From Escherichia coli (lineage in GTDB: Bacteria > Pseudomonadota > Gammaproteobacteria > Enterobacterales > Enterobacteriaceae), in the NCBI RefSeq assembly GCF_022846255.1, contig NZ_AP025682.1: a DNA stretch of 64,000 bases; one strand, given 5' to 3'. The position numbers were made by a program, and so were the translations under genes. Of the stretch, positions 4,011 through 48,103 are shown piece after piece (position 1 is the first letter of the stretch; every line of letters begins with the position of its first letter). Below the pieces are notes generated by a model. That model had not been told where the DNA came from. It ran no database searches and saw only the letters and a list, made by a program, of their open reading frames with translations.

Positions 4011-4041
4011 CACACGACAATCGCCTTTCAGCAAAACACAA

Positions 4042-4817: not shown

Positions 4818-6062
<1,245 letters not shown>

Positions 6063-6092
6063 TCAAATTTAAATGATCAGATCAGTATACCG

Positions 6093-7415: not shown

Positions 7416-7492
7416 GGTAACCTCCCGTGGAAAAGAGACGAGGTAATCGGGGAACCGGATGAGCATCGCTGCATCATCCGGCAAATCAAGCC

Positions 7493-8272: not shown

Positions 8273-8529
8273 TTCATTCTCCTGGCTTGTCGCCAATAAA
8301 ATTCACCTTGCGAGTTTGTTAGTATTCTAACATCTACTCCGCAACACACTTCGATGTACATCACAATTAAGGAAATCTACTTACAAGTTTGCATCACTGT
8401 AATGCGATCTGGTTCAAATAATTCACTTTCAAATGAATGCGTCAGTGGTGGCAAACGTATCAGGATCAAAGTGAACATCACGAAACTTCTTACAATGGCG
8501 CATCACCTTCGGCATAAAAGGAAAAGAAG
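8273..8529. promoter_or_regulatory. deo operon promoter region (deoP, expected DeoR/CytR/CRP operators), shared with the divergent yjjI
   Basis: Non-coding interval directly upstream of deoC on the minus strand and of yjjI on the plus strand; individual operators not mapped. Confidence 0.4.
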
Positions 8530-10915: not shown

Positions 10916-10916
10916 C

Positions 10917-11907
<991 letters not shown>

Positions 11908-11911
<4 letters not shown>

Positions 11912-28313: not shown

Positions 28314-29336
28314 TCAGAAAGTAATTACGCCCTTAATCAACTCACGATTGTTAATCACATCGCGCTCGTAGGTTTCTGCCAGTGTGGCGAACGGATAGCG
28401 GTGGGTTAACATCATGTCGGCAGTGATTTTCCCTTCCGCCATCAGTCGACCGACTTTAGCGAAATCTTCCGGCGTGGCGTTGCGGCTGCCCATCATCGTC
28501 GTTTCTTTTTTATGGAATTCCGGATCGGAGAACTGCAACTCACCTTTAAACAGGCCGACAAGTACCACCGTGCCGCCGTGACGAATCAGATTTACGGTGT
28601 TATTCATCGCATGTTGATTACCTGTCGCGTCGATCACTTTCTGCGCCAGCGAACCACCAAACTGCGCCCGCAGCTGCGCGTCAAAATCTTCGGCTGACGG
28701 GTCCAGCACGGGCAACTCCAGACGCGTTGCCACATGTTCACGACGCGCCGGACTGGTATCCGCCACCACCACCTGCGCGCCATCGGCTTTAGCGATTGCC
28801 GCCGCGCCCAGACCGATTGGCCCCGCCCCGACCACCAGCACCTGCTCGCCGGGAGCAATGGCTGCACGACGCACCGCATGAGCGCTAATAGCGAAAGGTT
28901 CAATCAATGCTGCCGCCTGCGGGTCAATACCGTCTGTGGGCAAAATGTTCGCCACCGGCACGCTCAAATACTCACTAAAACCGCCATCCTGATGCACGCC
29001 AATGACTGAAATTTTTTCACAGCAATTGGTACGACCGCTTTTACACGCCGGGCATTGCTGACAAGAAATATACGGAATTACCGCAACTTGCTGTCCGATA
29101 TTAAAATTGTGAATGTTTTTTCCTGATTCAATAATCTCCCCACATATTTCATGGCCTAAAACGCGTGGATAACTGAAAAATGGCTGATTGCCCGCCCAGG
29201 CATGAATATCTGTACCGCAAATCCCGACAGTTTTAATTTTAATTAATGCTTCATTATCGCCTGGCACCGGTCTTTCCCGGACTTCCCATACTAAATTCTT
29301 TATTTCCTGACAAATTAATACTTTCATTGTGGACAT
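28314..29336 (-). CDS. lgoD: Zn-dependent dehydrogenase, L-galactonate 5-dehydrogenase-like
   Basis: 340-aa ORF; MDR-family motifs GHEICGEI and GAGPIGLGA. Confidence 0.88.
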   Translation of the reverse strand: MSTMKVLICQEIKNLVWEVRERPVPGDNEALIKIKTVGICGTDIHAWAGNQPFFSYPRVLGHEICGEIIESGKNIHNFNIGQQVAVIPYISCQQCPACKSGRTNCCEKISVIGVHQDGGFSEYLSVPVANILPTDGIDPQAAALIEPFAISAHAVRRAAIAPGEQVLVVGAGPIGLGAAAIAKADGAQVVVADTSPARREHVATRLELPVLDPSAEDFDAQLRAQFGGSLAQKVIDATGNQHAMNNTVNLIRHGGTVVLVGLFKGELQFSDPEFHKKETTMMGSRNATPEDFAKVGRLMAEGKITADMMLTHRYPFATLAETYERDVINNRELIKGVITF

Positions 29337-29474
29337 GATTCACCGCTCCTTTTATTTTATGACTTTCAGATATCGTCGAATTTATAAGAGCGCCTGAATT
29401 TACCCATAAAATATGCGGATGATCGCGCATAAAAATGTTTTAAATCGGCTTTTAATGCCGGACTGGAGGGAAGA

Positions 29475-30380
29475 ATGAGTCGTTCGCAGAATTTACGTCA
29501 TAGCGTCATAAATCAGGTGATTGAAGATATGGCGAGGGGCAATATTCCTTCTCCGCTGCCTTCACAAAGCGGACTGGCAGAAATGTATAACATCAGTCGC
29601 ACTACGGTACGCCACATACTCCAGCATTTAAGCGCATGTGGCGTGCTCACCCTAGTGGGGAAAAATTATGTTATCGCCCGCAAACCCGAACAGAACGATG
29701 GATTTGATTGCATCACGGCCTCGCTGAAAGAGCAAAACCGTCTTTTCGAGCAGGCATTTTTCACCATGATTAACCTGCGCCAGTTACGCGCCGGAGAAAG
29801 CTTTTCCGAACTTCAGCTGGCGCGAGCGGCAAGCGTCAGTCCGGTAGTGGTACGAGAATATCTTTTGAAATTCGGTCGTTATAATCTTATTCAAAGCGAA
29901 AAGCGCGGCCAATGGAGCATGAAGCAGTTCGATCAATCCTACGCCGAGCAGCTGTTTGAGCTACGCGAAATGCTCGAAACACATTCCCTGCAACACTTTC
30001 TCAACCTTCCCGATGATGACCCTCGCTGGCTGCAAGCAAAAACCATGCTCGAACGCCACCGGACGCTGCGCGACAGCATTGGCAGCAACTTTCGAATGTT
30101 TTCTCAATTAGACCGTGATTTTCATGCCATGCTGTTATCCGCTGCTGACAACATCTTTTTTAATCAATCACTTGAAATTATATCGGTGATCTTTCATTTT
30201 CACTATCAATGGGATGAAAGCGATCTCAAACAGCGCAATATCATTGCTGTTGATGAACATATGACCATTCTCAGCGCCCTGATTTGCCGTAGCGATTTAG
30301 ATGCAATAACGGCGTTGCGAAACCATCTGGATACCGCCAAACAATCAATGATTCGTTCCATCAGGCAACATCACCGATAA
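29475..30380 (+). CDS. lgoR: GntR/FadR-family transcriptional regulator LgoR
   Basis: 301-aa ORF; N-terminal GntR HTH (LPSQSGLAEMYNISRTTVRHIL); divergent from lgoD. Confidence 0.85.
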   Translation: MSRSQNLRHSVINQVIEDMARGNIPSPLPSQSGLAEMYNISRTTVRHILQHLSACGVLTLVGKNYVIARKPEQNDGFDCITASLKEQNRLFEQAFFTMINLRQLRAGESFSELQLARAASVSPVVVREYLLKFGRYNLIQSEKRGQWSMKQFDQSYAEQLFELREMLETHSLQHFLNLPDDDPRWLQAKTMLERHRTLRDSIGSNFRMFSQLDRDFHAMLLSAADNIFFNQSLEIISVIFHFHYQWDESDLKQRNIIAVDEHMTILSALICRSDLDAITALRNHLDTAKQSMIRSIRQHHR

Positions 30381-30550
30381 ATTAAGTACAGATTAAAAAC
30401 ATTGATTCTTGGTTTATATCACTATGTTGTATTAATGCAGTATTAATCCAGGCGATTGTTCTGCCCATAAGGAAATACATAGGGAATAAACGATGCTGGA
30501 AGTATTACTCTCAGCCATCATTTAACTCCCTATTACTGACAGCGATAAAA

Positions 30551-32224
30551 TTATCGGCTATCCATGATTAACGTTTCCAGCACATCTAATTCACTGACTA
30601 TTTTTGCCAGTGTTTCATCACTGACTTCTTGCCTTGCGCGCATCTGGTAAATAGCCGCGCGTTTGGCATTTAACGCCGCCAGATTAAATGTTCTTTCCAG
30701 CTTCGCACGCTGCATATGCAGGGAATTATCATTAGGCGACATATCCTCTTCACTATGTCGCATATAACCGATAACTCTGGCCCCCGTTTCCATAATCAAC
30801 TCGTTATCGAGGTTTTCTGTTCTGGCGCGCAGCAAACGTTGCTCGGTCTTTTGCACACTCAGTATGGCCATTTTAGCCATAAACAGATCGGCAGCTTCCT
30901 CTTCTTTTTGTCGGTTATCGCTGAAAATCCCCACATTTTTCCCCAGTAATAACGGCAGAATAATAATGCCGCAAACCAGCGAAAAGAGGATCACACCTGT
31001 GGCGAGAAATACCAGCAAGTAACGCCCGGGAAAAGGTGTGCCATCCGGCAGCAATAACGGGATAGAAAGCACCCCCGCAAGCGTGATAGCTCCGCGCACC
31101 CCCGCAAAGGTCGCCAGCAGCATATGACGCGTTTTATATCCAGCAAACAGCATCGGATGTTTGCCGGGTCGTTTACGGCTATACAGACGCATCAGCCAAA
31201 GCCAGCCCAGGCGCACAACCATTAACGCCAGGTAGATCCAAATGACATCAAGGAGCAGCGATCCGGTGTCCACCAGTGGATCGTTTTCTGCACGGATCAG
31301 TGATTCCGAAATAATGCCCGGCAGTTGTAAGCCTAAAATCAGAAACACCATGCCGTTAAAGACATATTCAAGCATCGACCAGCTACTTTTAGCTTTAATT
31401 CTCAGGCGAATAGGCGCGCGGTGGACTACGCCAATGCGACTGGTTGTTAACCCCGCGGCGACAGCGGCAAGAATGCCAGATAAGCCAAAATGTTCCGCAA
31501 CCAGATAAACAATAAACGGCAACAGAAGCATCAATACAATCTGAATGGAAGGTTCATCGTGAGCATATCGGCTGATCAACAGCAGCCCTTTACCATATAA
31601 CCAGGTAACAGCGATCCCCACGGCAATACCGCCCAACGCAACGACAAAAAACGCAATGGTTGCGCCATGAACGCTGAATTCCATCGTTCCCATCGTCACT
31701 GCAACAGCAAATTTCAACGCCACCAGGCCGGAAGCATCATTCATCAACGCTTCGCCTTCGAGCACTTCCTGGATGTTTTTGCTGATACGCCCTTTCCCGA
31801 CAATCCCCAGCAACGCCACGGCATCGGTAGGCGACAACACGGCGGCTAATGCGAAAACAGCGATGAGCGGCACATTCGGTAAGAGTAAATGAATCACATA
31901 GCCGACACCAAAAATAGTGATTAGTACCAACACAAGTGCCAGGCTGATAATTTCCCGGCTGTGCTTGATCAATTCTTTAGGTTGTATTTTTGAACTTTCA
32001 GCAAACAACAGGGGTGGTATAAACAATAAGAGAAAAAGTTCAGGATTGAATTCCACATGCAGACCAAATATAGGCTGGGCCAGTACTGCACCAGCGGCAA
32101 TCTGGATTAAAGGAAGTGGTATCTGGACAGGAGACAGACGTGTAAGCACGCTGGTTAATGATACTACCAACGTAAGAATTAAAATTGTTAAAAGTATTTC
32201 CATATAATAAACAGGCTTCCTCAT
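30551..32224 (-). CDS. CPA1-family Na+/H+ (cation/proton) antiporter with C-terminal cytoplasmic domain
   Basis: 557-aa ORF, many TM segments, NhaP/NHE-like; start ambiguous between ATG at 32224 and ATG at 32203. Confidence 0.75.
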   Translation of the reverse strand: MRKPVYYMEILLTILILTLVVSLTSVLTRLSPVQIPLPLIQIAAGAVLAQPIFGLHVEFNPELFLLLFIPPLLFAESSKIQPKELIKHSREIISLALVLVLITIFGVGYVIHLLLPNVPLIAVFALAAVLSPTDAVALLGIVGKGRISKNIQEVLEGEALMNDASGLVALKFAVAVTMGTMEFSVHGATIAFFVVALGGIAVGIAVTWLYGKGLLLISRYAHDEPSIQIVLMLLLPFIVYLVAEHFGLSGILAAVAAGLTTSRIGVVHRAPIRLRIKAKSSWSMLEYVFNGMVFLILGLQLPGIISESLIRAENDPLVDTGSLLLDVIWIYLALMVVRLGWLWLMRLYSRKRPGKHPMLFAGYKTRHMLLATFAGVRGAITLAGVLSIPLLLPDGTPFPGRYLLVFLATGVILFSLVCGIIILPLLLGKNVGIFSDNRQKEEEAADLFMAKMAILSVQKTEQRLLRARTENLDNELIMETGARVIGYMRHSEEDMSPNDNSLHMQRAKLERTFNLAALNAKRAAIYQMRARQEVSDETLAKIVSELDVLETLIMDSR

Positions 32225-32893
32225 TCATAAATAATGGATATTATTAATTTAATTTCATAAAAAGCGCTCTGGTTAGCACTTAACGTTAATCATTAATCAC
32301 TGCGTTCACTCACATGATCAGAAGGAACCCAGTAAAATAAGTTTTCAAGTTGATAACAAATTCACCATGTGAATATTTACTGCCTTTCCCCGTTGTAACG
32401 AATCGTCCGTTACTCTCTGATTTCCTTGCCGAACAAGTTATTTAGTGAATGACGGCTTTCTTTTAATATCAGCATGAATTATACGTTCAGCAAATGTATT
32501 AAATCAGCACTAAATAAATTTAATGGATACCACCATTCTGCGTCAACACTTAGTTTTTATCTGTATTGACAATTTAAAATGGCCGCAGCCAAATTAATGA
32601 TTTTATTTTTAATAAATCATCAACAGAATAAGAGATCTTATCAGCGGTAACTAAACTCATCAGAGGGTGTTCCTTGTAACGTCATGCATTACATAACTTT
32701 AAAATATACAATCAAAAAATGCATTAAAAACCGATTAAAAGCAGCAAAGTATTACCCGGTGCACGAATTTATGATACATCTGCAGCCATTCTGCTATTCG
32801 CTGACTACTTTTCAGTAATGACTGCTTTTTCATAAGGTTTCACTCCCGACAACAATGTTGGAGTTTTATTTTCTTAGCATGGAGTAAGTAAAG
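32225..32893. promoter_or_regulatory. AT-rich divergent intergenic region between the antiporter gene and the TRAP operon
   Basis: About 670 bp, very AT-rich, no ORF of 60 aa or more; contains a TTGACA-like hexamer. Confidence 0.35.
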
Positions 32894-33865
32894 ATGAGCA
32901 AAATAATAGCGATGCTAATTACTGTCAGTACCTTTTTTTTACCGTCAATAATCCAGGCAAAACCTATTTCAATAAAAGTTGCCTATGAAAATAACCCTGG
33001 AGAACCCCTGGATGTAGTCATGCGTTACTGGGCAGACCTATTAAATAAAAAAAGTAATGGCGAAATAACACTTGCGCTCTATCCCAGCTCCCAATTGGGA
33101 TCAAAACAGGATGTCACCGAGCAAGCCATGATGGGCATGAATGTCATAACCTTGAGTGATGTGGCCTTTCTTGCCGATTATGAACCCGATTTGGGGATTT
33201 TGTTTGGACCGTATCTGACTGACGATCCGCAAAAACTGTTCAAAATATATGAAAGCGACTGGTTTAAACAAAAAAATGAAAGTCTGAAGAAAAAGGGAAT
33301 TCATGTGGTAATGAATAATTATCTCTATGGCACTCGACAGATTATTTCGAAAAAACCCATTCGCACCGTTGACGATCTCGCAGGTTTAAAAATTCGCGTT
33401 CCTAATAACGTCATGCAAATAAAAGCCATTCAGGCGATGGGGGCAACACCAACTCCCATGCCATTAGGCGAAGTTTATCCCGCATTAACCCAGGGCGTTA
33501 TTGACGGCGTAGAAAACCCAATTTCAGTGCTGCAAGGGCAAAAACTGTATGAGCAGGCAAGATATCTGACAATGGTTAACTACCTGACAAATACCTCAGT
33601 GTGGATAGGTGGTGAAGCCTTCTTTAGCACCCTTTCACCAGAACAACTGGAGATGATCCACCAGACCGGCTATGAAGCGGGTGTCTATAGCCAGAAACTC
33701 ACTCTTGAGCGTGATGCCGAAATGTTGAAAACCATGCAGGCAGCCGGCGTCGAAGTGATCTATCCCGATACTGGACCATTCCAGAAGAAAGCACGCGAAG
33801 TTTACTCTCAATTCCCGGAATGGACACCAGGTCTGTACGAAACCATTCAACAGCAACTGCAATAA
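32894..33865 (+). CDS. TRAP transporter substrate-binding protein (DctP family)
   Basis: 323-aa ORF with signal peptide; markedly AT-rich codon usage; followed by DctQ/DctM-like genes. Confidence 0.8.
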   Translation: MSKIIAMLITVSTFFLPSIIQAKPISIKVAYENNPGEPLDVVMRYWADLLNKKSNGEITLALYPSSQLGSKQDVTEQAMMGMNVITLSDVAFLADYEPDLGILFGPYLTDDPQKLFKIYESDWFKQKNESLKKKGIHVVMNNYLYGTRQIISKKPIRTVDDLAGLKIRVPNNVMQIKAIQAMGATPTPMPLGEVYPALTQGVIDGVENPISVLQGQKLYEQARYLTMVNYLTNTSVWIGGEAFFSTLSPEQLEMIHQTGYEAGVYSQKLTLERDAEMLKTMQAAGVEVIYPDTGPFQKKAREVYSQFPEWTPGLYETIQQQLQ

Positions 33866-33928
33866 GCATTAATGCTCAGCGTCCTGCCTCATCTCTCTTA
33901 GGCAGGACACGCACTAACAGGAGGTTTC

Positions 33929-34402
33929 ATGCGTCTTTTTGGCAAAGTGGCAGAATTTAGTGCTGCCTTTGCGCTATTCGTTCTGGTTGTGGTGACAATT
34001 GGAGCGGTATTTATGCGTTATTTCATCGGCCAACCGCTTCAATGGACAGAAGAAATGTCGGGAATGCTGATGATTTGGGTGGTGATGTTAGGTGGAGTGG
34101 TGGCGGAACGTGACAGGGCGCACCTGACCATTCCCTTCCTGATGGAGATGCTTCCAGGCAAACTCAGGCGTGTTATTGCAGTACTGGTCGCCCTTCTCTC
34201 CATCGCACTGCTGCTTTATATGGCCTGGCTGGGCTACCGACTAGCCGAAATGGCGCAGTTTAAAGTGACACAAATTCTGAAGGTTTCCTGGTTCTGGATC
34301 GATCTGGCGGTCCCTGTCGGCGCACTGGCAACGGCTATTTATACCCTCTACTGGTTAATAAACGATACAAAACAATCCGATAGCGGAGACAAAATGCAAT
34401 GA
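33929..34402 (+). CDS. TRAP transporter small permease (DctQ family)
   Basis: 157-aa, 4-TM ORF; overlaps the next gene by 4 nt. Confidence 0.8.
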   Translation: MRLFGKVAEFSAAFALFVLVVVTIGAVFMRYFIGQPLQWTEEMSGMLMIWVVMLGGVVAERDRAHLTIPFLMEMLPGKLRRVIAVLVALLSIALLLYMAWLGYRLAEMAQFKVTQILKVSWFWIDLAVPVGALATAIYTLYWLINDTKQSDSGDKMQ

Positions 34403-35670
34403 GTTGGTTATTGATTATTCCGCTAATGATCGTCTGTTTGTTTCTCAACATTCGGGTCTATCTGGCGATGTTTATTGGCATCATCGCTTACTTTTTATTC
34501 TTCTCCAGCGTACCGATTGAAATTGCCGTGCAAAGACTAATCGCGCCAACGCAAAGCCCATCATTGCTGGCCATTCCGTTTTTTATCTTGCTAGGCACAC
34601 TAATGAGCTACACCGGCATTGCCGAACGCATCCTGCACATTGCCAACGTTCTGGTGGGGAAAATGCGCGGCGGACTGGGCGTGGCAAACATTCTCGTCAG
34701 CACCATGATGGGCGGCGTCAGCGCCTCTAACCTTGCTGACGCGGCGATGCTGTCGCGCATGATGGTGCCGGAGATGGAGCGTAAAGGCTACAATCGCGCG
34801 TTTGCCGCCGCCATTACCGCTGGTGGCTCGTTAGTCACCCCGATCATACCGCCTGGAATAGCCCTGATTATTTACGGTCTGGTTGCCGACGTCTCTATCG
34901 GAAAAATGTTTATCGCCGGACTGGTACCTGGTTTGCTATGCGCAGTCGTACTGATGTTTACCGTCTACCTTGTCGCCCGCAAAACTAACGCTAAACCCTC
35001 GCGTGAAAGCTGGCCTACGGGCAAAGAGGTGGTGTTCTCGCTGGGACAGGCCTGGCCTGCGCTGTTCCTCATTTTTGCTGTGGTGGGTGGTATTCGCGCT
35101 AACATTTTCACCCCAACAGAAGCAGGTGCAGTAGCGGTGCTAATCGTGCTGGCGATTGGCTTTTTTATCTATCGTGAAATGCGGATTTCTCATGTCGTCA
35201 AAGCATTGGGCGAAACGGCACGCGCAACCGCATCGGTGATGCTGGTAATCATGGCCAGCGCCGCATTGGGATGGATTTTCTCAATGGAACATGCTGGTGT
35301 CGCAGTGGCGAATTTTGTGACTTCGCTGACCGAAAACAAATACATGTTCCTGTTGATTATCAACATATTGCTGCTGACGCTGGGGATGTTTCTGGAAGGA
35401 AACGCCATTTTGCTGATCCTGGTACCACTATTAAAACCGGTGGTCGAACACTTTGGCATCGATCCGGTGCATTTTGGCATCATCATGATCTTCAACCTGT
35501 CGATTGGCGCATTCACGCCACCGGTAGGTACCGTGATGCTGCTGGTATGTAATATCACGCAAGTTTCGGTGGGAAATTTCTTTAAACAATCCCTGCCCCT
35601 ACTGGCGGCTCTACTGTTAATGCTAATGCTGGTGACATATATCCCGGCGATTTCACTGTTCCTGGTTTAA
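34399..35670 (+). CDS. TRAP transporter large permease (DctM family)
   Basis: 423-aa polytopic membrane ORF; ATGA overlap with the DctQ-like gene. Confidence 0.8.
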   Translation: MSWLLIIPLMIVCLFLNIRVYLAMFIGIIAYFLFFSSVPIEIAVQRLIAPTQSPSLLAIPFFILLGTLMSYTGIAERILHIANVLVGKMRGGLGVANILVSTMMGGVSASNLADAAMLSRMMVPEMERKGYNRAFAAAITAGGSLVTPIIPPGIALIIYGLVADVSIGKMFIAGLVPGLLCAVVLMFTVYLVARKTNAKPSRESWPTGKEVVFSLGQAWPALFLIFAVVGGIRANIFTPTEAGAVAVLIVLAIGFFIYREMRISHVVKALGETARATASVMLVIMASAALGWIFSMEHAGVAVANFVTSLTENKYMFLLIINILLLTLGMFLEGNAILLILVPLLKPVVEHFGIDPVHFGIIMIFNLSIGAFTPPVGTVMLLVCNITQVSVGNFFKQSLPLLAALLLMLMLVTYIPAISLFLV

Positions 35671-35712
35671 TAATAAAAACGCCGGATGAAATACTCATCC
35701 GGCATCATTACG

Positions 35713-37377
35713 TTAAAACGTTTCCCAGTTCTCCTCGCTATCTGCCACGGCCATTTTGCGCGGCGTAGCTGGCGTCACGGTTTTTACCACAGCCGATGCT
35801 TCACGCTGCTGTTGCTGCTGTTGCTGAATCCGGAACACTGCCACTGCTTCGGTCAGGCGACTGGCCTGCTCTTCCAGCGCGGCGGCGGCGGCGGCAGATT
35901 CTTCCACCAGCGCGGCGTTCTGTTGAGTTACCCGGTCCATCTCAGCAACCGCTAAGCCAACCTGATCGATACCACGGCTCTGCTCATCAGAAGCAGAAGC
36001 AATTTCGCCCATAATGTCCGTCACGCGGGTCACGGCACTGACAATCTCCGCCATTGTTTCCCCTGCGCTTTCGACCAGCGTAGAGCCAACATCTACTTTC
36101 CCCACCGAGTCTTCAATCAGGCTTTTAATTTCACGAGCCGCCTGAGCGCTGCGCTGGGCCAGATTACGCACTTCACCCGCGACCACCGCAAAACCGCGCC
36201 CTTGCTCACCCGCGCGCGCTGCTTCAACCGCCGCGTTCAAAGCCAGAATATTGGTCTGGAAGGCAATGCCGTCAATTACGCTGATAATATCGGCGATTTT
36301 CTGCGAACTGGTGGAGATATCGCGCATAGTCTGCACCACGTTATCTACCACTTTGCCGCCGCGTTGCGCCGTTTCAGAAGCACTTAACGCCAGGTGGCTG
36401 GCCTGGCGCGCATTTTCGGCGTTCTGCTTCACCGTTGCGGTCAGTTGCTCCATGCTGGCTGCCGTCTCTTCCAGCGAAGCGGCCTGTTGCTCGGTGCGCG
36501 AAGAGAGATCGTTATTGCCGGTAGCGATTTCGCTGGCACCGCTATAGATGGCATTGGCCCCGTTGCGCACATCACCGACGGTACGCATCAGCTCTCCCTG
36601 CATATGGCGCAAACTCTCAGCCAGTTGCCCCATCTCATTAGAGCCATCCACCTCAATCGGTTTCACCAGATCGCCGCCTGCAATATGACGAATGCTGTCA
36701 ATCAGGCGATTCATTGGCGCTACCAACGAGGCTTTAATACCGAACCAGACGGCGAAGATGACCGCCAGTACGACGATCATCACGCCCACCAGAATCCACA
36801 TCGCCTGGCTGTAGGAGGCATTGTTATCGCTGACGGCGATATCATAGAGCCGATCGTTTTGCTCCATGTAAGCCACATACTGCTTCTCGAAACCGTCCTG
36901 ATATCCCTGGGTCGGCTGATCAAAGAACTCGTTGATTTTGCCTGCACCTAACAGTTGGATCAGCTCCGCCAGCGCATTGTGATAAATATCGTAATTACGT
37001 TTGATCTCTGCCGCTGCGGCGGTGCTCTGACGCGGGTCACGCGGCAACGCTTCGTAATCCGCCCAGTTTTTTTCCGCCTGTTTCAGCGAAATACTGGCAC
37101 TCTGCATCAGCTCAGCAACGGTTGAACCGCTACCAATATTATTCTGATCCATCATGTAGCGGATACCCGCGCGGTTGAGGGTGTTACGCGTCTGCAACAA
37201 CGCGACCCAGCTGCCATTCAGCGTGGATTGCTGCTGGCGAATGGTTTGTAAAACAGTGAAATTTTCTTTGTCATTCTTTAAGGCATTAAAGAACAGACCG
37301 CCTGATGTCAGTTGTAAAAGGCCAAAAACGGCCAAAACCAGCAGTAAGCTGGTCACGATCTTGATACGTTTTAACAT
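35713..37377 (-). CDS. tsr: Methyl-accepting chemotaxis protein I (serine chemoreceptor)
   Basis: 554-aa ORF ending ...EENWETF; HAMP and MCP signalling domains; seven consecutive Gln codons in the C-terminal linker. Confidence 0.93.
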
Positions 37378-37495
37378 GGTTTCTCTTTCCTGTGGACCGA
37401 TGCAAGATTTTCGGCCTGGAAAGGAAAAACTTTATGAAAAGGTGTAACCCGCCATCCATGGAAAAACCAGGCGCTGGTTATCAGATATTAAAAAG

Positions 37496-37942
37496 TTATT
37501 CATTATCGCCCGGAATGTCTTCTTGTCGGGAATTACCCAGAGCAATAAATTCCTCTAACAGATGGGTTAACTGTTGCATTTTCTCGGCAGTAAACTGAGC
37601 TTCAATCTGCCGATAGGCTTCTTCAATCTGTGTCTGAGCGCGGTTATACAGGGCCTGCCCCTCTTTGGTCAGCGAGATATAGAGCTTCCGCTGATCATTG
37701 ATCGGCTTTAATCGCAACACTAAACCGTCGCGTTCCATCCTCGTGAGGATCCCGGTCAGGCTTGGGCGCAAAATGCAGGCGCGATACGCCAGATCGTGAA
37801 AATCCATTGATGGGCTTTCCGCCAGAATACGCACGATGCGCCACTGTTGCTCAGTCAAATTATGCCGTTTAACGATTGGGCGAAAATAACTCATCGCCGC
37901 TTCTCGCGCCTGGAGCAACGCAATGGTTAGTGAGTCGTGCAT
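37496..37942 (-). CDS. hpaR: MarR-family repressor of the hpa meta-cleavage operon
   Basis: ORF track 37496..37996; start at MHDSLTIALLQAREAAMSYF. Confidence 0.88.
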   Translation of the reverse strand: MHDSLTIALLQAREAAMSYFRPIVKRHNLTEQQWRIVRILAESPSMDFHDLAYRACILRPSLTGILTRMERDGLVLRLKPINDQRKLYISLTKEGQALYNRAQTQIEEAYRQIEAQFTAEKMQQLTHLLEEFIALGNSRQEDIPGDNE

Positions 37943-38213
37943 TATCTTTCCCCTGAAAAATTCAAAATCATTAATATAGAAACAGTTAATCGTCACGTTA
38001 CCGGGACTGAGCTATCCCCGCAATTCCTCATTTTATCAAAATTGAGCATACTTTATTAACTTACTGATATTTAGTATTTTATTACCTGCAAATGTAAATA
38101 GTTTGTTAATTAGATCACATTTACATCACTTACTTTTGCCAAACTACGCAATCGGGAATAAAAGTAATCATTAACATATTAATGATTAAAATGATCGAAT
38201 CCGAGGAGTGGTA
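37943..38213. promoter_or_regulatory. hpaR/hpaG divergent promoter-operator region
   Basis: AT-rich interval between divergent hpaR and hpaG. Confidence 0.45.
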
Positions 38214-39503
38214 ATGAAAGGCACTATCTTCGCCGTAGCGTTGAACCATCGCAGCCAGCTTGATGCATGGCAGGAAGCGTTCCAGCAATCCCCCTACAAA
38301 GCCCCGCCTAAAACTGCGGTCTGGTTTATTAAACCGCGCAATACGGTGATTGGTTGCGGTGAACCGATTCCCTTTCCACAGGGTGAAAAGGTACTGAGCG
38401 GTGCGACAGTTGCGCTGATTGTGGGAAAAACGGCGACGAAAGTACGTGAAGAAGATGCGGCAGAGTACATCGCCGGATATGCGCTGGCTAACGACGTCAG
38501 CCTGCCGGAAGAGAGCTTTTACCGCCCGGCAATCAAAGCAAAATGTCGTGATGGATTCTGCCCCATTGGCGAAACCGTGGCTCTCAGCAATGTCGATAAT
38601 CTGACCATCTATACCGAGATCAACGGGCGTCCTGCCGATCACTGGAACACCGCCGATTTACAACGTAATGCCGCGCAGTTGCTGAGCGCCCTGAGCGAAT
38701 TTGCCACGCTGAATCCAGGCGATGCCATTCTGCTCGGCACGCCACAGGCGCGCGTGGAAATACAGCCAGGCGATCGCGTTCGTGTTCTCGCAGAAGGTTT
38801 CCCGCCACTGGAAAATCCGGTAGTGGACGAACGTGAAGTGACCACGCGCAAGAGCTTCCCAACGCAGCCACACCCGCACGGCACGCTGTTTGCCCTCGGC
38901 CTGAACTACGCCGACCACGCCAGCGAACTGGAATTTAAGCCACCGGAAGAACCGCTGGTGTTCCTGAAAGCGCCGAATACCCTCACGGGCGATAACCAGA
39001 CCTCCGTGCGCCCGAACAATATTGAATACATGCACTACGAAGCGGAGCTGGTGGTAGTTATTGGCAAGCAGGCGCGTAACGTCAGCGAAGCCGATGCCAT
39101 GGATTATGTCGCGGGCTACACCGTGTGTAACGACTACGCCATTCGCGACTATCTGGAAAACTACTACCGCCCTAACCTGCGGGTAAAAAGCCGCGACGGA
39201 CTGACGCCGATGCTTTTAACCATCGTGCCGAAAGAGGCGATCCCGGACCCGCATAATCTGACCCTTCGCACCTTCGTCAACGGCGAGTTACGCCAGCAAG
39301 GCACCACCGCCGATCTGAACTTCAGCGTGCCCTTCCTGATCGCCTACTTAAGCGAATTTATGACCCTGAATCCGGGCGACATGATCGCCACCGGCACACC
39401 AAAAGGCTTATCTGACGTGGTGCCTGGCGATGAAGTAGTGGTGGAAGTCGAAGGCGTGGGCCGCCTGGTGAACCGAATTGTGAGTGAGGAAACAGCGAAA
39501 TGA
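38214..39503 (+). CDS. hpaG: Bifunctional 5-carboxymethyl-2-oxo-hex-3-ene-1,7-dioate decarboxylase / 2-hydroxyhepta-2,4-diene-1,7-dioate isomerase (FAH family, duplicated domain)
   Basis: ORF track 38208..39503; start at MKGTIF with GAGGAG RBS; 429 aa. Confidence 0.88.
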   Translation: MKGTIFAVALNHRSQLDAWQEAFQQSPYKAPPKTAVWFIKPRNTVIGCGEPIPFPQGEKVLSGATVALIVGKTATKVREEDAAEYIAGYALANDVSLPEESFYRPAIKAKCRDGFCPIGETVALSNVDNLTIYTEINGRPADHWNTADLQRNAAQLLSALSEFATLNPGDAILLGTPQARVEIQPGDRVRVLAEGFPPLENPVVDEREVTTRKSFPTQPHPHGTLFALGLNYADHASELEFKPPEEPLVFLKAPNTLTGDNQTSVRPNNIEYMHYEAELVVVIGKQARNVSEADAMDYVAGYTVCNDYAIRDYLENYYRPNLRVKSRDGLTPMLLTIVPKEAIPDPHNLTLRTFVNGELRQQGTTADLNFSVPFLIAYLSEFMTLNPGDMIATGTPKGLSDVVPGDEVVVEVEGVGRLVNRIVSEETAK

Positions 39504-40966
39504 AAAAAGTAAATCATTGGATCAACGGCAAAAATGTTGCAGGTAACGACTACTTCCAGACTACCAATCCGGCAACGGGTGAAGTGCTGGCGGATGTGGC
39601 CTCTGGCGGTGAAGCGGAGATCAATCAGGCGGTAGCGGCAGCGAAAGAGGCGTTCCCGAAATGGGCCAATCTGCCGATGAAAGAGCGTGCGCGCCTGATG
39701 CGCCGTCTGGGCGATTTGATCGACCAGAACGTGCCTGAGATCGCCGCGATGGAAACCGCGGACACGGGCCTGCCGATCCATCAGACCAAAAATGTGTTGA
39801 TCCCACGCGCTTCTCACAACTTTGAATTTTTCGCGGAAGTCTGCCAGCAGATGAACGGCAAGACCTATCCGGTTGACGACAAGATGCTCAACTACACGCT
39901 GGTGCAACCGGTAGGCGTTTGTGCGCTGGTGTCACCGTGGAACGTGCCGTTTATGACCGCCACATGGAAGGTCGCGCCGTGTCTTGCGCTGGGCAATACC
40001 GCGGTGCTGAAGATGTCGGAACTCTCCCCGCTGACCGCTGACCGCCTGGGTGAGCTGGCGCTGGAAGCCGGTATTCCGGCAGGCGTGCTGAACGTGGTAC
40101 AGGGCTACGGCGCAACCGCAGGGGATGCGCTGGTTCGTCATCATGACGTACGTGCCGTGTCGTTCACCGGCGGTACGGCCACCGGGCGCAACATCATGAA
40201 AAAAGCCGGGCTGAAAAAATACTCCATGGAACTGGGCGGTAAATCGCCGGTGCTGATTTTTGAAGATGCTGATATTGAACGCGCGCTGGACGCCGCCCTG
40301 TTCACCATCTTCTCGATCAACGGCGAGCGCTGCACCGCCGGTTCGCGCATCTTTATTCAGCAAAGCATCTACCCGGAATTCGTTAAACGCTTTGCCGAAC
40401 GCGCCAACCGTCTGCGCGTGGGCGATCCGAATGATCCGAATACCCAGGTTGGGGCGCTTATCAGCCAGCAACACTGGGAAAAAGTCTCCGGCTATATCCG
40501 TCTCGGCATTGAAGAAGGCGCAACCCTGCTGGCGGGCGGTCCGGATAAACCGTCCGACCTGCCTGCGCACCTGAAAGGCGGCAACTTCCTGCGCCCAACG
40601 GTGCTGGCTGACGTTGATAACCGTATGCGCGTCGCCCAGGAAGAGATTTTCGGGCCGGTCGCCTGCCTGCTGCCGTTTAAAGATGAAGCCGAAGGCTTAC
40701 GCCTGGCAAACGACGTGGAGTACGGCCTCGCGTCGTACATCTGGACGCAGGATGTCAGCAAAGTGTTACGCCTGGCGCGTGGCATTGAAGCAGGCATGGT
40801 GTTCGTCAACACCCAGAACGTGCGCGACCTGCGCCAGCCGTTTGGCGGCGTAAAAGCCTCCGGCACCGGGCGTGAAGGCGGTGAGTACAGCTTCGAAGTG
40901 TTCGCGGAAATGAAGAACGTCTGCATTTCCATGGGCGACCATCCAATTCCGAAATGGGGAGTCTGA
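39500..40966 (+). CDS. hpaE: 5-carboxymethyl-2-hydroxymuconate semialdehyde dehydrogenase (NAD aldehyde dehydrogenase)
   Basis: 488-aa ALDH-family ORF; ATGA overlap with hpaG. Confidence 0.88.
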   Translation: MKKVNHWINGKNVAGNDYFQTTNPATGEVLADVASGGEAEINQAVAAAKEAFPKWANLPMKERARLMRRLGDLIDQNVPEIAAMETADTGLPIHQTKNVLIPRASHNFEFFAEVCQQMNGKTYPVDDKMLNYTLVQPVGVCALVSPWNVPFMTATWKVAPCLALGNTAVLKMSELSPLTADRLGELALEAGIPAGVLNVVQGYGATAGDALVRHHDVRAVSFTGGTATGRNIMKKAGLKKYSMELGGKSPVLIFEDADIERALDAALFTIFSINGERCTAGSRIFIQQSIYPEFVKRFAERANRLRVGDPNDPNTQVGALISQQHWEKVSGYIRLGIEEGATLLAGGPDKPSDLPAHLKGGNFLRPTVLADVDNRMRVAQEEIFGPVACLLPFKDEAEGLRLANDVEYGLASYIWTQDVSKVLRLARGIEAGMVFVNTQNVRDLRQPFGGVKASGTGREGGEYSFEVFAEMKNVCISMGDHPIPKWGV

Positions 40967-40967
40967 T

Positions 40968-41819
40968 ATGGGTAAGTTAGCGTTAGCCGCCAAGATCACG
41001 CACGTACCGTCGATGTATCTCTCTGAACTGCCAGGGAAAAACCACGGTTGCCGCCAGGGCGCGATCGACGGGCATAAAGAGATCAGCAAGCGTTGCCGGG
41101 AAATGGGCGTCGATACCATTATCGTTTTCGATACTCACTGGCTGGTCAACAGTGCTTATCACATCAACTGTGCAGACCATTTTGAAGGCGTCTACACCAG
41201 CAACGAGCTGCCGCATTTTATTCGTGACATGACCTACAACTACGAGGGCAACCCGGAGTTGGGGCAGCTAATTGCCGATGAAGCGATAAAACTCGGCGTG
41301 CGGGCGAAAGCGCACAACATTCCCAGCCTGAAACTGGAATACGGCACGCTGGTGCCAATGCGCTACATGAATGAAGACAAGCACTTCAAAGTGGTTTCCA
41401 TTTCGGCTTTCTGCACGGTTCACGATTTTGCCGACAGCCGCAAGCTGGGCGAAGCGATTCTGAAAGCGATCGAACAGTACGACGGCACCGTGGCGGTCCT
41501 TGCCAGCGGTTCGTTATCGCACCGCTTTATTGACGATCAGCGTGCGGAAGAAGGGATGAACAGCTACACCCGCGAGTTCGACCGCCAGATGGACGAGCGC
41601 GTGGTGAAGCTGTGGCGCGAAGGCCAGTTCAAAGAGTTCTGCAATATGCTGCCGGAGTACGCCGACTACTGCTACGGCGAAGGCAATATGCACGACACGG
41701 TGATGCTGCTGGGGATGCTCGGCTGGGATAAATACGACGGCAAGGTGGAGTTTATCACCGAGCTGTTCCCAAGCTCCGGTACTGGTCAGGTTAACGCTGT
41801 TTTCCCGCTTCCCGCGTAA
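40968..41819 (+). CDS. hpaD: 3,4-dihydroxyphenylacetate 2,3-dioxygenase (extradiol)
   Basis: 283-aa ORF in hpa operon position. Confidence 0.85.
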   Translation: MGKLALAAKITHVPSMYLSELPGKNHGCRQGAIDGHKEISKRCREMGVDTIIVFDTHWLVNSAYHINCADHFEGVYTSNELPHFIRDMTYNYEGNPELGQLIADEAIKLGVRAKAHNIPSLKLEYGTLVPMRYMNEDKHFKVVSISAFCTVHDFADSRKLGEAILKAIEQYDGTVAVLASGSLSHRFIDDQRAEEGMNSYTREFDRQMDERVVKLWREGQFKEFCNMLPEYADYCYGEGNMHDTVMLLGMLGWDKYDGKVEFITELFPSSGTGQVNAVFPLPA

Positions 41820-41828
41820 GGAACCACC

Positions 41829-42209
41829 ATGCCGCACTTTATCGTGGAATGTACTGAAAATATTCGTCAAGAAGCCCGCTTACCTGAGCTGTTTGCCAGT
41901 GTTAACACCGCACTGGCAGCGACGGGGATTTTTCCGCTTGGGGGAATACGTAGCCGGGCACACTGGATCGATACCTGGCAAATGGCTGATGGCAAGCACG
42001 ATTACGCCTTTGTGCATATGACGCTAAAAATCGGCAGCGGGCGCAGTCTGGAAAGCCGTCAGGAAGTGGGCGAAATGCTGTTTGATCTGATTAAAACGCA
42101 CTTCGCCTCACTGATGGAGAGCCGTTACCTGGCGCTTTCATTTGAGATTGCAGAGCTGCACCCGACGTTGAATTTCAAACAGAACAACGTACACGCGTTG
42201 TTTAAATAA
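41829..42209 (+). CDS. hpaF: 5-carboxymethyl-2-hydroxymuconate isomerase
   Basis: 126-aa [21 protein letters not shown]. Confidence 0.85.
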
Positions 42210-42214
42210 ATTTG

Positions 42215-42262
42215 CACCAGCTTCCAGGCCGGATGATAAGGCGCAGCCGCATCCGGCAATGC
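42215..42262. repeat. REP element between hpaF and hpaH
   Basis: GCCGGATGATAAGGCGCAGCCGCATCCGGCA palindrome. Confidence 0.7.
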
Positions 42263-42276
42263 CACAGGATATCGCT

Positions 42277-43080
42277 ATGTTCGATAAACATACCCACACC
42301 CTGATCGCCCAGCGTCTGGATCAGGCAGAAAAACAGCGCGAACAGATCCGCGCGATCTCCCTGGATTACCCGGAGATCACCATCGAAGACGCTTACGCGG
42401 TGCAGCGCGAATGGGTTCGCCTGAAAATCGCCGAAGGCCGTACGCTGAAAGGCCACAAAATCGGACTGACCTCGAAAGCGATGCAGGCCAGCTCACAAAT
42501 CAGCGAACCAGATTACGGTGCACTGCTGGACGACATGTTCTTCCACGACGGCAGCGATATCCCGACCGATCGCTTTATCGTGCCGCGCATTGAAGTGGAG
42601 CTGGCTTTCGTGCTGGCAAAACCGCTGCGTGGGCCAAACTGCACGCTGTTCGACGTCTACAACGCCACGGACTATGTGATCCCGGCGCTGGAGCTGATCG
42701 ACGCTCGCTGCCACAACATCGATCCGGAAACCCAGCGCCCGCGTAAAGTGTTCGACACCATTTCTGATAACGCCGCCAATGCCGGGGTGATCCTCGGTGG
42801 TCGTCCCATTAAGCCCGATGAGTTGGATCTACGTTGGATCTCCGCCCTGATGTATCGCAATGGCGTGATTGAAGAAACCGGCGTCGCCGCTGGCGTGCTG
42901 AATCACCCGGCAAACGGCGTGGCCTGGCTGGCGAACAAACTCGCACCGTATGACGTACAACTGGAAGCCGGGCAAATCATTCTCGGTGGTTCGTTCACCC
43001 GCCCGGTTCCGGCGCGTAAGGGCGACACCTTCCACGTCGATTACGGCAACATGGGCTCCATTAGCTGCCGCTTTGTTTAA
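42277..43080 (+). CDS. hpaH: 2-oxo-hept-3-ene-1,7-dioate hydratase
   Basis: ORF track 42259..43080; start at [14 protein letters not shown]; 267 aa. Confidence 0.85.
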
Positions 43081-43090
43081 GGAGAGAACG

Positions 43091-43879
43091 ATGGAAAACA
43101 GTTTTAAAGCGGCGCTGAAAGCAGGCCGCCCGCAGATCGGATTATGGCTGGGGCTAAGTAGCAGCTACAGCGCAGAGTTACTGGCCGGAGCAGGATTCGA
43201 CTGGTTATTGATCGACGGTGAGCACGCGCCGAACAACGTGCAAACCGTGCTCACCCAGCTACAGGCGATTGCGCCCTACCCCAGCCAGCCGGTAGTGCGC
43301 CCATCCTGGAACGATCCGGTGCAAATCAAACAACTGCTGGATGTCGGTACACAAACCTTACTGGTGCCGATGGTACAAAACGCCGACGAAGCCCGTGAAG
43401 CGGTACGCGCCACCCGTTATCCCCCCGCCGGTATTCGTGGTGTGGGCAGTGCGCTGGCCCGCGCCTCGCGCTGGAACCGTATTCCGGATTACCTGCAAAA
43501 AGCCAACGATCAAATGTGCGTGCTGGTGCAGATCGAAACTCGTGAGGCAATGAAGAACCTACCGCAGATTCTGGACGTGGAAGGGGTAGACGGCGTGTTT
43601 ATCGGCCCGGCGGATCTGAGCGCCGATATGGGTTATGCCGGTAATCCGCAGCACCCGGAAGTGCAGGCCGCCATTGAACAGGCGATCGTGCAGATCCGTG
43701 AAGCGGGCAAAGCTCCGGGGATCCTGATCGCCAATGAGCAACTGGCAAAACGCTACCTGGAACTGGGCGCGCTATTTGTCGCCGTCGGCGTTGACACCAC
43801 CCTGCTCGCCCGCGCCGCCGAAGCGCTGGCAGCACGGTTTGGTGCTCAGGCCACCGCCGTGAAGCCCGGCGTGTATTAA
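43091..43879 (+). CDS. hpaI: 2,4-dihydroxyhept-2-ene-1,7-dioate aldolase (HpcH/HpaI)
   Basis: ORF track 42950..43879; start at [19 protein letters not shown] with GGAGAG RBS; 262 aa. Confidence 0.88.
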
Positions 43880-43880
43880 T

Positions 43881-43951
43881 GCCGGATGCGCTTATCCGGT
43901 TTACAGCAGTACCAAATTGTAGCCGGATAAGGCGTTTGTGCTGCATCCGCC
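43881..43951. repeat. REP pair downstream of hpaI
   Basis: GCCGGATGCGCTTATCCGG and GTAGCCGGATAAGGCGTTTGTGCTGCATCCGCC. Confidence 0.7.
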
Positions 43952-43996
43952 ATAAACCTTGTCGTACCCTACAAAAATCCCATTAGAGGAAGAAAA

Positions 43997-45373
43997 ATGA
44001 GCGACACCTCACCTGCCATACCGGAGAGTATCGATCCGGCGAATCAGCATAAAGCGCTGACTGCCGGACAACAGGCGGTTATTAAGAAGTTGTTTCGCCG
44101 CCTGATCGTCTTTCTGTTCGTGCTGTTTATCTTCTCGTTCCTTGATCGCATCAACATTGGTTTTGCTGGACTAACGATGGGACGCGACCTCGGTCTGAGC
44201 GCCACCATGTTTGGCCTCGCTACCACCCTGTTCTACGCCGCTTATGTCATCTTCGGCATTCCCAGCAACATTATGCTGAGTATTGTCGGTGCGCGGCGCT
44301 GGATCGCCACCATCATGGTGCTCTGGGGCATCGCCTCTACGGCCACCATGTTTGCCACTGGCCCCACCAGCTTATACGTACTGCGTATACTGGTTGGCAT
44401 TACCGAAGCCGGCTTTCTGCCTGGTATTCTGCTGTATTTAACCTTCTGGTTTCCGGCCTATTTCCGCGCCCGTGCCAACGCCTTGTTTATGGTAGCAATG
44501 CCGGTAACGACAGCGCTGGGATCTATCGTTTCCGGCTACATTTTGTCGCTGGATGGCGTAATGGCATTAAAAGGCTGGCAGTGGCTGTTTTTGCTGGAAG
44601 GCTTCCCGTCGGTATTACTCGGCGTCATGGTGTGGTTCTGGCTTGATGACTCACCGGACAAAGCTAAGTGGCTGACGAAAGAAGACAAAAAATGCCTGCA
44701 AGAGATGATGGATAACGATCGTCTGACGCTGGTTCAGCCAGAGGGAGCCATCAGTCACCACGCCATGCAACAACGCAGCATGTGGCGGGAGATCTTCACT
44801 CCGGTGGTGATGATGTATACCCTGGCGTATTTCTGCCTGACCAACACACTTAGTGCAATCAGCATCTGGACACCGCAGATCCTGCAAAGCTTTAATCAGG
44901 GTAGCAGTAATATCACCATCGGCCTGCTGGCCGCCGTACCGCAGATTTGTACCATTCTCGGGATGATCTACTGGAGCCGTCACTCAGATCGCCGCCAGGA
45001 ACGAAGGCATCACACCGCCCTTCCTTATTTGTTCGCTGCCGCTGGTTGGTTACTGGCTTCGGCAACTGATCACAACATGATCCAGATGCTGGGGATCATT
45101 ATGGCTTCGACCGGATCATTCAGCGCAATGGCGATTTTCTGGACAACACCGGATCAGTCCATCAGCCTGCGGGCACGAGCGATCGGTATTGCGGTGATCA
45201 ACGCCACTGGCAACATTGGTTCAGCGTTAAGTCCGTTTATGATCGGCTGGTTGAAAGATCTGACCGGCAGCTTTAACAGTGGATTGTGGTTTGTTGCCGC
45301 GCTGCTGGTGATTGGTGCGGGGATTATCTGGGCAATTCCAATGCAGTCCTCCCGTCCGCGAGCGACCCCGTAA
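43997..45373 (+). CDS. hpaX: 4-hydroxyphenylacetate permease (MFS)
   Basis: 458-aa 12-TM MFS ORF. Confidence 0.85.
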   Translation: MSDTSPAIPESIDPANQHKALTAGQQAVIKKLFRRLIVFLFVLFIFSFLDRINIGFAGLTMGRDLGLSATMFGLATTLFYAAYVIFGIPSNIMLSIVGARRWIATIMVLWGIASTATMFATGPTSLYVLRILVGITEAGFLPGILLYLTFWFPAYFRARANALFMVAMPVTTALGSIVSGYILSLDGVMALKGWQWLFLLEGFPSVLLGVMVWFWLDDSPDKAKWLTKEDKKCLQEMMDNDRLTLVQPEGAISHHAMQQRSMWREIFTPVVMMYTLAYFCLTNTLSAISIWTPQILQSFNQGSSNITIGLLAAVPQICTILGMIYWSRHSDRRQERRHHTALPYLFAAAGWLLASATDHNMIQMLGIIMASTGSFSAMAIFWTTPDQSISLRARAIGIAVINATGNIGSALSPFMIGWLKDLTGSFNSGLWFVAALLVIGAGIIWAIPMQSSRPRATP

Positions 45374-45382
45374 GGAACGACG

Positions 45383-46273: not shown

Positions 46274-46523
46274 AAATCCCTTAGCCTTAACGGGAAACCA
46301 GGCACCACCTGCTATTCCCCTTTCTCCGCCTGGAGCAAGGGGATTTAGTAACGTTAAAAATCGCGAAAAGCGACCTCGATCACAAAACCGTACCCGACCT
46401 GAAAAGTACCAGCCATTGTCCCAAAAGTGTCTTCCCGTAATCGCCCCTGCAAGCTTCAATTGAATAACAAAAACAACACACAAAATTAACAATCATATTC
46501 CGATTAATACTGTAGAGGTCGAT
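46274..46523 (+). promoter_or_regulatory. hpaBC promoter region
   Basis: 250-bp non-coding interval upstream of hpaB. Confidence 0.4.
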
Positions 46524-48086: not shown

Positions 48087-48103
48087 CGCAGCAGGAGGTT
48101 AAG

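Follow-up and report, generated by a model that had tools for sequence, protein, structure and literature searches.

The DNA examined here is a 64,000-nt stretch of the Escherichia coli contig NZ_AP025682.1 (assembly GCF_022846255.1), which is called the window in the following and to which all coordinates refer. Between 24.3 and 37.4 kb it comprises the E. coli region dnaC-yjjA-opgB-lgoD-lgoR ... tsr. At the position where E. coli K-12 has the order lgoD-lgoR-lgoT-tsr, lgoT being the gene of an MFS permease, four genes were found between the stop codon of lgoR (30380) and the stop codon of tsr (35713): a minus-strand gene for a CPA1 Na+/H+ antiporter and the plus-strand genes dctP, dctQ and dctM of a transporter of the TRAP type (tripartite ATP-independent periplasmic). 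This gene content with its coordinates, as well as the presence of lgoT at this slot in K-12, had been put forward in an initial annotation of the window, and both were borne out.

To the left of the four genes lie lgoD, the gene of the L-galactonate 5-dehydrogenase (28314-29336, minus strand; 340 aa, 93% identity to K-12 LgoD), the divergent promoter spacer of lgoD and lgoR (29337-29474; ~65% identity to K-12) and a variant allele of lgoR, which encodes a GntR/FCD regulator of 301 aa (29475-30380, plus strand). The antiporter gene (30551-32203, minus strand) is a paralogue of yjcE. Its longest open reading frame extends to 32224, but the true start is likely M8 at 32203, in agreement with the call of the NCBI Prokaryotic Genome Annotation Pipeline (PGAP) and with the alignment to YjcE. 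The encoded protein scored 524 bits on TIGR00831 (cut-off 279.6), and PF00999 was matched by members of its protein cluster. An AT-rich gap of 670 bp separates the antiporter gene from dctP (32894-33865), dctQ (33929-34402) and dctM (34399-35670), which are adjacent to each other, with an overlap of 4 nt between dctQ and dctM. The periplasmic solute-binding subunit DctP scored 179.5 bits on TIGR00787 (cut-off 175.05) and 177.7 bits on NF037995 (cut-off 50), and its hydrophobic N-terminal residues 1-22 form a putative leader. The small membrane subunit DctQ matched PF04290 (E = 7e-31) and the large membrane (elevator) subunit DctM scored 400 bits on TIGR00786 (cut-off 268). A terminator-like hairpin, composed of a 13-pair stem and a following T run (35678-35706, minus strand), is located in the gap between dctM and tsr (35713-37377, minus strand), the latter forming the right flank. 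As had been noticed before, dctP is AT-rich, with a GC content of 43.5% against 51% for the window; the 500-bp spacer upstream of it has 31.5%. The names given in RefSeq are already generic ("Na+/H+ antiporter" and "C4-dicarboxylate TRAP transporter substrate-binding protein"), and a literature search yielded no paper on this locus or on these RefSeq proteins, nor on growth of strains with the TRAP form on L-galactonate.

Within a sample of 5,426 complete E. coli genomes, in which a carrier was called when at least 80% of the query was covered, the flanks were matched in 5,393 genomes and the antiporter-plus-TRAP form was present in 860 (~16%, about one in six); a query consisting of the four genes only gave 859. 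Among the carriers are CFT073, 536, IHE3034 and the O145:H28 strain RM13514. The gene lgoT was present in 4,520 genomes of the same set. As the subtraction of 860 from 5,393 leaves 4,533 genomes, compared with 4,520 that have lgoT, the two forms practically exclude each other and are alleles of a single locus. The comparison with other E. coli genomes for lgoT, which the initial annotation had proposed, thus leaves almost no room for strains holding both. The carriers fall into two identity bands, 600 genomes at a minimum of 99% and 264 at 95-99% (with listed examples at ~97.4%), so that E. coli itself holds two sub-alleles of the TRAP form, one at 99% or more and one at ~97.4%.

The variant segment is larger than the four genes. 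It had been taken to start at 30381, directly behind lgoR, whereas it was found to extend further to the left, through lgoR and the promoter spacer into the 5' third of lgoD. Up to ~29000 the sequence is 97-100% identical to K-12 (97-99% per 100 nt just before this position); beyond it the value drops to 65-89% in the remainder of lgoD, in the promoter spacer and in the greater part of lgoR, two short K-12-like patches excepted. Consequently, lgoD is K-12-like in its 3' two thirds and belongs to the variant allele in its 5' third (from ~29000). On the right side, homology to K-12 is back at 98.1% from 35713, the tsr stop, which places the boundary in the dctM-tsr gap. The variant lgoR shares 86.7% of its amino acids and 79.4% of its nucleotides with the K-12 gene, and its synonymous divergence (dS) of 1.7 is judged to be far above ordinary within-species values. 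LgoR proteins of Citrobacter, Enterobacter, Klebsiella and Pectobacterium are 84-88% identical to the variant LgoR. Besides the transporter, the regulator and the promoter of lgoD are thus distinct between the two alleles, and the edges of the segment look like breakpoints of homologous recombination.

The TRAP form was also found outside E. coli. Escherichia sp. E4742, an E. ruysiae-like strain, exhibits the same order lgoD-lgoR-CPA1-dctPQM-tsr, with 85-93% nucleotide identity to the window in the genes and 90.6% in the flanks, which is approximately species-level divergence. Citrobacter amalonaticus has the order opgB-lgoD-lgoR-dctPQM-tsr without the antiporter, at ~78% nucleotide identity to the window and 80-83% in the flanks. 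A third version of the lgo locus occurs in C. freundii and Raoultella, where it is expanded: a mannitol-dehydrogenase-family gene (UxaB/UxuB-like) stands beside lgoD, an enolase-superfamily dehydratase gene is located between lgoR and the gene of an MFS transporter (4380-10900 of the extracted loci), and tsr is present as well in C. freundii. From these gene orders it appears that the opgB-tsr interval is a long-standing site of variation for sugar-acid genes. Relative to the E. ruysiae-like copy, the genes of the window have diverged to unequal extents at synonymous sites (dS of 0.24 for the antiporter gene, 0.95 for dctP, 0.81 for dctM and 0.62 for lgoR), which suggests a mosaic history of the allele.

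Horizontal acquisition had been proposed in the initial annotation, and the low GC content of dctP (43.5%) and of the spacer (31.5%), the patchy spread over 16% of the genomes and the sharp edges against K-12 would all fit a recent genomic island from outside Escherichia. However, no tRNA gene was found between 20 and 45 kb in the window, the corresponding stretch of the TRAP-allele strain 1105 has no annotated integrase or insertion sequence element, and models for anti-phage defence gave no match. The same position and gene order in the E. ruysiae-like strain, with the locus at 85-93% and the flanks at 90.6%, and the presence of dctPQM at this position in C. amalonaticus at ~78%, near the flank level of 80-83%, likewise argue against an island, and the GC content of lgoR is just as low in K-12 as in the window (47% in both alleles). 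The site is occupied in both of these taxa, and flanking direct repeats occur only at the 2.3-kb antiporter insert described below. A recent island is therefore considered very improbable; the TRAP form instead behaves as an old alternative allele that is exchanged by homologous recombination.

The antiporter gene and the TRAP operon had furthermore been regarded as one unit, but they turned out to be two pieces acquired separately. Homology to C. amalonaticus ends at 30401 and restarts at 32881. Two 21-nt direct repeats (repeat family D3; both plus strand), ATTAAGTACAGATTAAAAACA at 30381-30401 and ATTAAAAACCGATTAAAAGCA at 32723-32743, share 81% identity at a spacing of 2342. The right repeat, at which the native upstream region of dctP begins, can be aligned with the sequence directly behind the stop codon of lgoR in the genomes of K-12, C. 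amalonaticus, C. freundii and Raoultella. This sequence, ATTAAAA.C..ATTAAAAACA, is itself a tandem half-repeat and is kept across genera in every lgo locus examined, whatever gene comes next. As the repeats lie at the edges of homology and correspond to the conserved sequence behind lgoR, it appears that the insertion of a 2.3-kb block took place directly behind lgoR. The block contains the antiporter gene and ~500 bp of AT-rich DNA upstream of it (32204-32722, ~31% GC), and the native dctP upstream region of ~170 bp was kept. Only 59% of the spacer 32204-32722 could be aligned to the E. ruysiae-like copy. The AT-rich spacer contains no remnant of a Klebsiella-type or other dctP, and an Rfam scan of 29-36 kb yielded no match.

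Over its full length the inserted antiporter shares 58% identity with YjcE of E. coli, and the motifs SPTDAVA, EALMNDASG and GVRGAITLAG are identical in both proteins. By analogy with NhaP structures, we take these to be ion-binding motifs (with the residue pairs TD and ND) and a segment with a conserved arginine, respectively. Both proteins pass the TIGR00831 cut-off. In 5,425 of the 5,426 genomes yjcE is present, in the context ghxP-yjcE-yjcF-actP-yjcH-acs, whereas the window antiporter is a second copy at another locus that occurs in TRAP-allele strains only. The two paralogues can recombine, as exemplified by a chimeric CPA1 gene in E. coli GCA_015160575.1 (8001-9653 of the extracted locus, to be compared with 30551-32203 in the window). 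Its product resembles YjcE in the N-terminal ~290 aa, and in the C-terminal ~260 aa it is for the most part the same as the window antiporter (90-100% identity per 50-residue block). Its context, soxS-soxR-ghxP-chimera-lgoR-lgoD-opgB, implies a large chromosomal rearrangement, probably an inversion, via recombination between yjcE and its paralogue. What looks like a junction of the reciprocal type is seen in a further locus (L075), the downstream genes of which are not E. coli-like; it may be an assembly artefact.

What the TRAP system imports can be approached via its binding protein. The closest solved structure is 4OVT, the protein Oant_3902 of Ochrobactrum anthropi (phmmer E = 7e-147, ~70-75% identity), and a second structure, 4O8M (Asuc_0158 of Actinobacillus succinogenes, target EFI-510004), is 42% identical (E = 2e-80). 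An AlphaFold2 model of DctP, built with an alignment of 40 sequences, reached a pLDDT of 89.7 and gave Foldseek TM-scores of 0.87-0.93 to 4OVT and 0.85-0.91 to 4O8M. The initial annotation had proposed to look for a conserved arginine for carboxylate binding, and R148 as well as R168 (in the motif KIRVP) were indeed invariant in the same 40 relatives, with N208 invariant or nearly so. By alignment offset, these residues are inferred to correspond to R127, R147 and N187 of SiaP, the role of N187 being presumed here. Both structures reportedly stem from the Enzyme Function Initiative screen of Vetting et al. from 2015, and 4OVT was presumably solved with L-fuconate and 4O8M with L-galactonate.

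The neighbouring genes point in the same direction. In most of 65 related loci the gene immediately upstream of dctP encodes a Zn-dependent dehydrogenase with ~35% identity to LgoD. The Brucella locus combines a tagaturonate-reductase-like (uxaB-like) gene, a GntR gene, the gene of a UxaA-family dehydratase, the Zn-dehydrogenase gene and dctPQM, a set which is predicted to cover every step between L-galactonate and 2-keto-3-deoxygluconate. The genes that adjoin dctPQM in E. coli, in the E. ruysiae-like strain and in C. amalonaticus are lgoD and lgoR. The ratio of nonsynonymous to synonymous divergence (dN/dS) is 0.02 for dctP, 0.013 for dctM and 0.05 for lgoR, with a range of 0.01-0.12 for all four genes. 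A K-12 mutant with a deletion of lgoT does not grow on L-galactonate (bioRxiv 10.64898/2026.05.20.726482). As LgoT is hence the sole route in K-12, and as lgoD and lgoR are intact beside dctPQM in three species (with the low dN/dS of lgoR), the TRAP system would be what supplies their substrate. The view that the TRAP system is an alternative route for L-galactonate, already expressed in the initial annotation, is thus backed by its place in the lgoT slot, the mutual exclusion of both transporters, the homology of the binding protein, the neighbouring genes and the conserved arginines. Very probably, the system serves the uptake of L-galactonate or a close analogue such as L-fuconate.

Taken together, we favour the explanation that the TRAP form is one of two long-standing lgo alleles, in which dctPQM stands in for LgoT in the uptake of L-galactonate and to which the antiporter gene was added later; on balance this appears likely. 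In the common K-12 allele, lgoR is followed by lgoT, the gene of a proton-coupled MFS permease. Homologous recombination would swap a segment of ~6.7 kb, reaching from within lgoD (~29000) to the dctM-tsr gap (~35712), and would thereby bring in the divergent lgoR, the other lgoD promoter and dctPQM in place of lgoT. DctP would then bind periplasmic L-galactonate, and probably also its 6-deoxy analogue L-fuconate, through the conserved arginines and hand the ligand to DctQM, which would import it together with Na+. LgoD would oxidise L-galactonate to D-tagaturonate, which would enter the UxaB/UxaA pathway. The antiporter, added with the 2.3-kb insert, may export the Na+ entering with the substrate.

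In comparison with known systems, the binding proteins of 4OVT and 4O8M have the same fold and arginines as DctP, and their orthologues are likewise located beside lgoD-like, uxaA-like and uxaB-like genes. Unlike them, DctP of the window belongs to an enterobacterial host, to the E. coli lgo locus and to a regulator of the LgoR type. LgoT (YjjL), an L-galactonate:H+ symporter of the ACS family within the MFS, occupies the same slot, 3' of lgoR and beside tsr, and presumably has the same task, but it is a one-component proton symporter of an unrelated family, whereas the TRAP system has three components and depends on a binding protein. For LgoT a Km of 37 uM has been reported (bioRxiv 10.64898/2026.05.20.726482). 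The system of the window is probably Na+-coupled, unidirectional and of higher affinity than LgoT.

Several observations, some from the relatives of DctP and some from the promoter region of the operon, weigh against the favoured explanation. The two closest solute-binding proteins outside Citrobacter, which are 81-83% identical to DctP, are not encoded beside lgoD: the operon of Edaphovirga (83%) adjoins the gene of a 3-oxo-tetronate kinase, and the operon of Affinibrenneria (81%) adjoins genes of a DASS-family symporter and of a DcuS-like kinase. These contexts indicate that specificity may drift within this clade of binding proteins. It is accordingly conceivable, albeit improbable, that the TRAP system imports another acid (L-fuconate only, L-gulonate, a hexuronate or a C4 sugar acid) and that TRAP-allele strains have lost the uptake of L-galactonate. 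Besides the close relatives in non-lgo contexts, it would fit this alternative that the nearest solved homologue, 4OVT, was presumably crystallised with L-fuconate and not with L-galactonate, and that PGAP no longer gives this LgoD the name "L-galactonate oxidoreductase", the name having been dropped because the N-terminal third of LgoD diverged. On the other hand, intact lgoD and lgoR genes beside the operon in three taxa would be pointless without an uptake route, and genes of the L-galactonate pathway flank orthologues of the operon in alpha-proteobacteria. In addition, a dual specificity for L-fuconate and L-galactonate is known for one TRAP system, that of Chromohalobacter, characterised by Vetting et al. 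(2015) according to PMC5507952.

As regards the promoter region, no robust palindromic LgoR operator common to the lgo promoters emerged from sequence comparison, and the insert parts dctPQM from lgoR, so that any read-through from lgoR, as in lgoRT of K-12, would be lost. In the lgoD-lgoR spacer, an lgoR-proximal block, CGCATAAAAATGTTTTAAATCGG.TTTTAAT, is kept across genera, and the lgoD-proximal half is allele-specific (six taxa). The native region upstream of dctP (32744-32893, plus strand) is homologous to the lgoR-dctP spacer of C. amalonaticus and, in K-12, to the ~50 nt with which the lgoR-lgoT spacer begins. It contains a stem at 32846-32861 and the palindrome CAACAATGTTG (32851-32861), a candidate operator situated ~33 nt upstream of the start codon of dctP. 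In the whole 64-kb window the motif AMAATGTTKK has two matches, one in the lgoD-lgoR spacer (29432) and one inside CAACAATGTTG (32852); it is short and AT-rich, these very sites were used to derive it, and it is not enriched over chance expectation. The number of promoter-like sites did not exceed that in shuffled sequence, and a literature search did not yield a published LgoR binding site. As the ~170-bp native upstream region is kept, control of dctPQM by LgoR would be expected.

Two other TRAP operons came up in the course of the comparisons. The operon of BEN2908, which lies beside a gene for a YjjN homologue, was considered as the same locus and rejected, because it is located elsewhere, at ygiQ-ftsP. 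A second, paralogous operon is found beside gltA in E. coli SCPM-O-B-8794, E. albertii and E. whittamii (3000-12100 of the extracted loci), with a solute-binding protein 72% identical to that of the window. It is preceded by genes for a GntR regulator, an RraA-like aldolase, a Zn-dehydrogenase, a short-chain dehydrogenase/reductase and a split UxaA-like dehydratase, and its dctM was detected at ~72% nucleotide identity in about 106 E. coli genomes. The gene content looks like that of another, uncharacterised sugar-acid pathway.

The remaining part of the favoured explanation concerns the coupling ion and the antiporter. DctM matched the SiaM protein of Photobacterium profundum (chain 7QHA_B; E = 2.5e-79), and its residues D114 and E333 align with D304 and D521 of SiaQM from Haemophilus influenzae, mutations of which abolish Na+-dependent transport. 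The SiaPQM system requires at least two Na+ per substrate, and Na+ dependence is documented for TRAP transporters (PMC5812351). Uptake by DctQM is thus likely to be Na+-coupled. DctM hence shares with the SiaPQM systems of H. influenzae and P. profundum the required acidic residues, but the binding proteins are only ~27% identical and the substrate differs; the Q and M subunits of the window are separate as in P. profundum and not fused as in H. influenzae.

If Na+ enters through DctQM, the antiporter and the TRAP transporter could form one functional module, in which the CPA1 protein expels this Na+ via the proton gradient and uptake becomes in effect proton-driven. Such a module would suit the Na+ demand of SiaPQM and the conserved acidic residues of DctM, as well as the purifying selection on the antiporter gene (dN/dS of 0.086 against the E. 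ruysiae-like copy). It would also agree with the position of the closest CPA1 relatives outside Escherichia, those of Klebsiella sp. I138 and Limnobaculum xujianqingii (75-77% identity; the orthologue in the CPA1-dctPQM-GntR arrangement at 77%), which are likewise divergent from a dctPQM operon across a spacer of ~700 bp. The TRAP system at these loci is of another subfamily (DctP of 353 aa, 26% identity; DctM of 493 aa, 27% identity), neither lgoD nor lgoR is nearby, and the spacers share no similarity with that of the window. Moreover, yjcE itself is only one gene (yjcF) away from the cation/acetate symporter gene actP, and another relative is located near a DASS-family symporter gene.

A 70-nt element, 80% identical, was found in the spacers upstream of the CPA1 orthologues of Klebsiella sp. 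I138, Limnobaculum and one metagenomic sequence. The spacer of Escherichia lacks this element, which may serve to regulate the antiporter gene.

Against a functional module stands that the antiporter is absent from the lgoD-lgoR-dctPQM locus of C. amalonaticus, so that the TRAP system does not need it. Within 8 kb, none of the 65 related loci has a CPA1 gene, in Edaphovirga ~100 kb lie between the CPA1 and the TRAP genes, and truncated copies of the antiporter gene exist in some E. coli (P0075, P0080-P0086). The arrangements of Klebsiella and Limnobaculum are 95% identical in DctP and hence represent one event. Locus L075, which had appeared to be a third independent association of CPA1 and TRAP genes, was rejected as such, since dctP and the spacer match E. 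coli at 99% and the CPA1 gene is a chimera; it is a copy of the E. coli locus. Furthermore, E. coli already carries yjcE, nhaA, nhaB and chaA. The suggestion of the initial annotation that the antiporter supplies the Na+ gradient thus finds an echo in relatives standing head-to-head with another TRAP system, while the later insertion of the gene and its absence from C. amalonaticus and from the 65 related loci speak against it, leaving it with weak support. A functional module is, on this evidence, doubtful, although recycling of Na+ by the antiporter appears plausible.

A broader idea can be derived from the neighbours of the YjcE-type family, which include ActP (one gene off), two unrelated TRAP systems and, nearby, a DASS symporter. 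YjcE-type CPA1 antiporters might be dedicated Na+ return partners of Na+-coupled importers of organic anions, and the inserted paralogue might suit a Na+-driven, high-affinity TRAP system for L-galactonate to the low-Na+, proton-based physiology of E. coli. This idea is speculative and rather unlikely; to our knowledge, YjcE itself is uncharacterised. If it were true, lgoT versus TRAP-plus-antiporter would represent a maintained trade-off between low- and high-affinity scavenging, which could matter for the gut and urinary fitness of extraintestinal pathogenic E. coli of phylogroup B2.

The lgo locus offers a natural case of non-orthologous transporter displacement inside one species. Approximately 16% of the complete E. 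coli genomes, including those of the uropathogens CFT073 and 536, are without the sole known L-galactonate permease and have a TRAP system and a second CPA1 antiporter instead. In metabolic models and phenotype predictions that rely on the gene names of K-12, these strains would wrongly appear to have no L-galactonate uptake. The locus also represents a simple genetic system for asking whether a Na+/H+ antiporter beside a TRAP transporter is of benefit and what function the YjcE family has. The parts belong to well-known families, and neither answer would overturn current understanding.

Directly downstream of tsr, before btsT, the window contains a hpa (4-hydroxyphenylacetate) catabolic cluster (37378-48616). 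K-12 and the TRAP-allele strain 1105 lack this cluster, whereas about 2,063 of the 5,426 genomes have it. The best match of this stretch among the complete genomes was 98.1%, with none at 99% or above.

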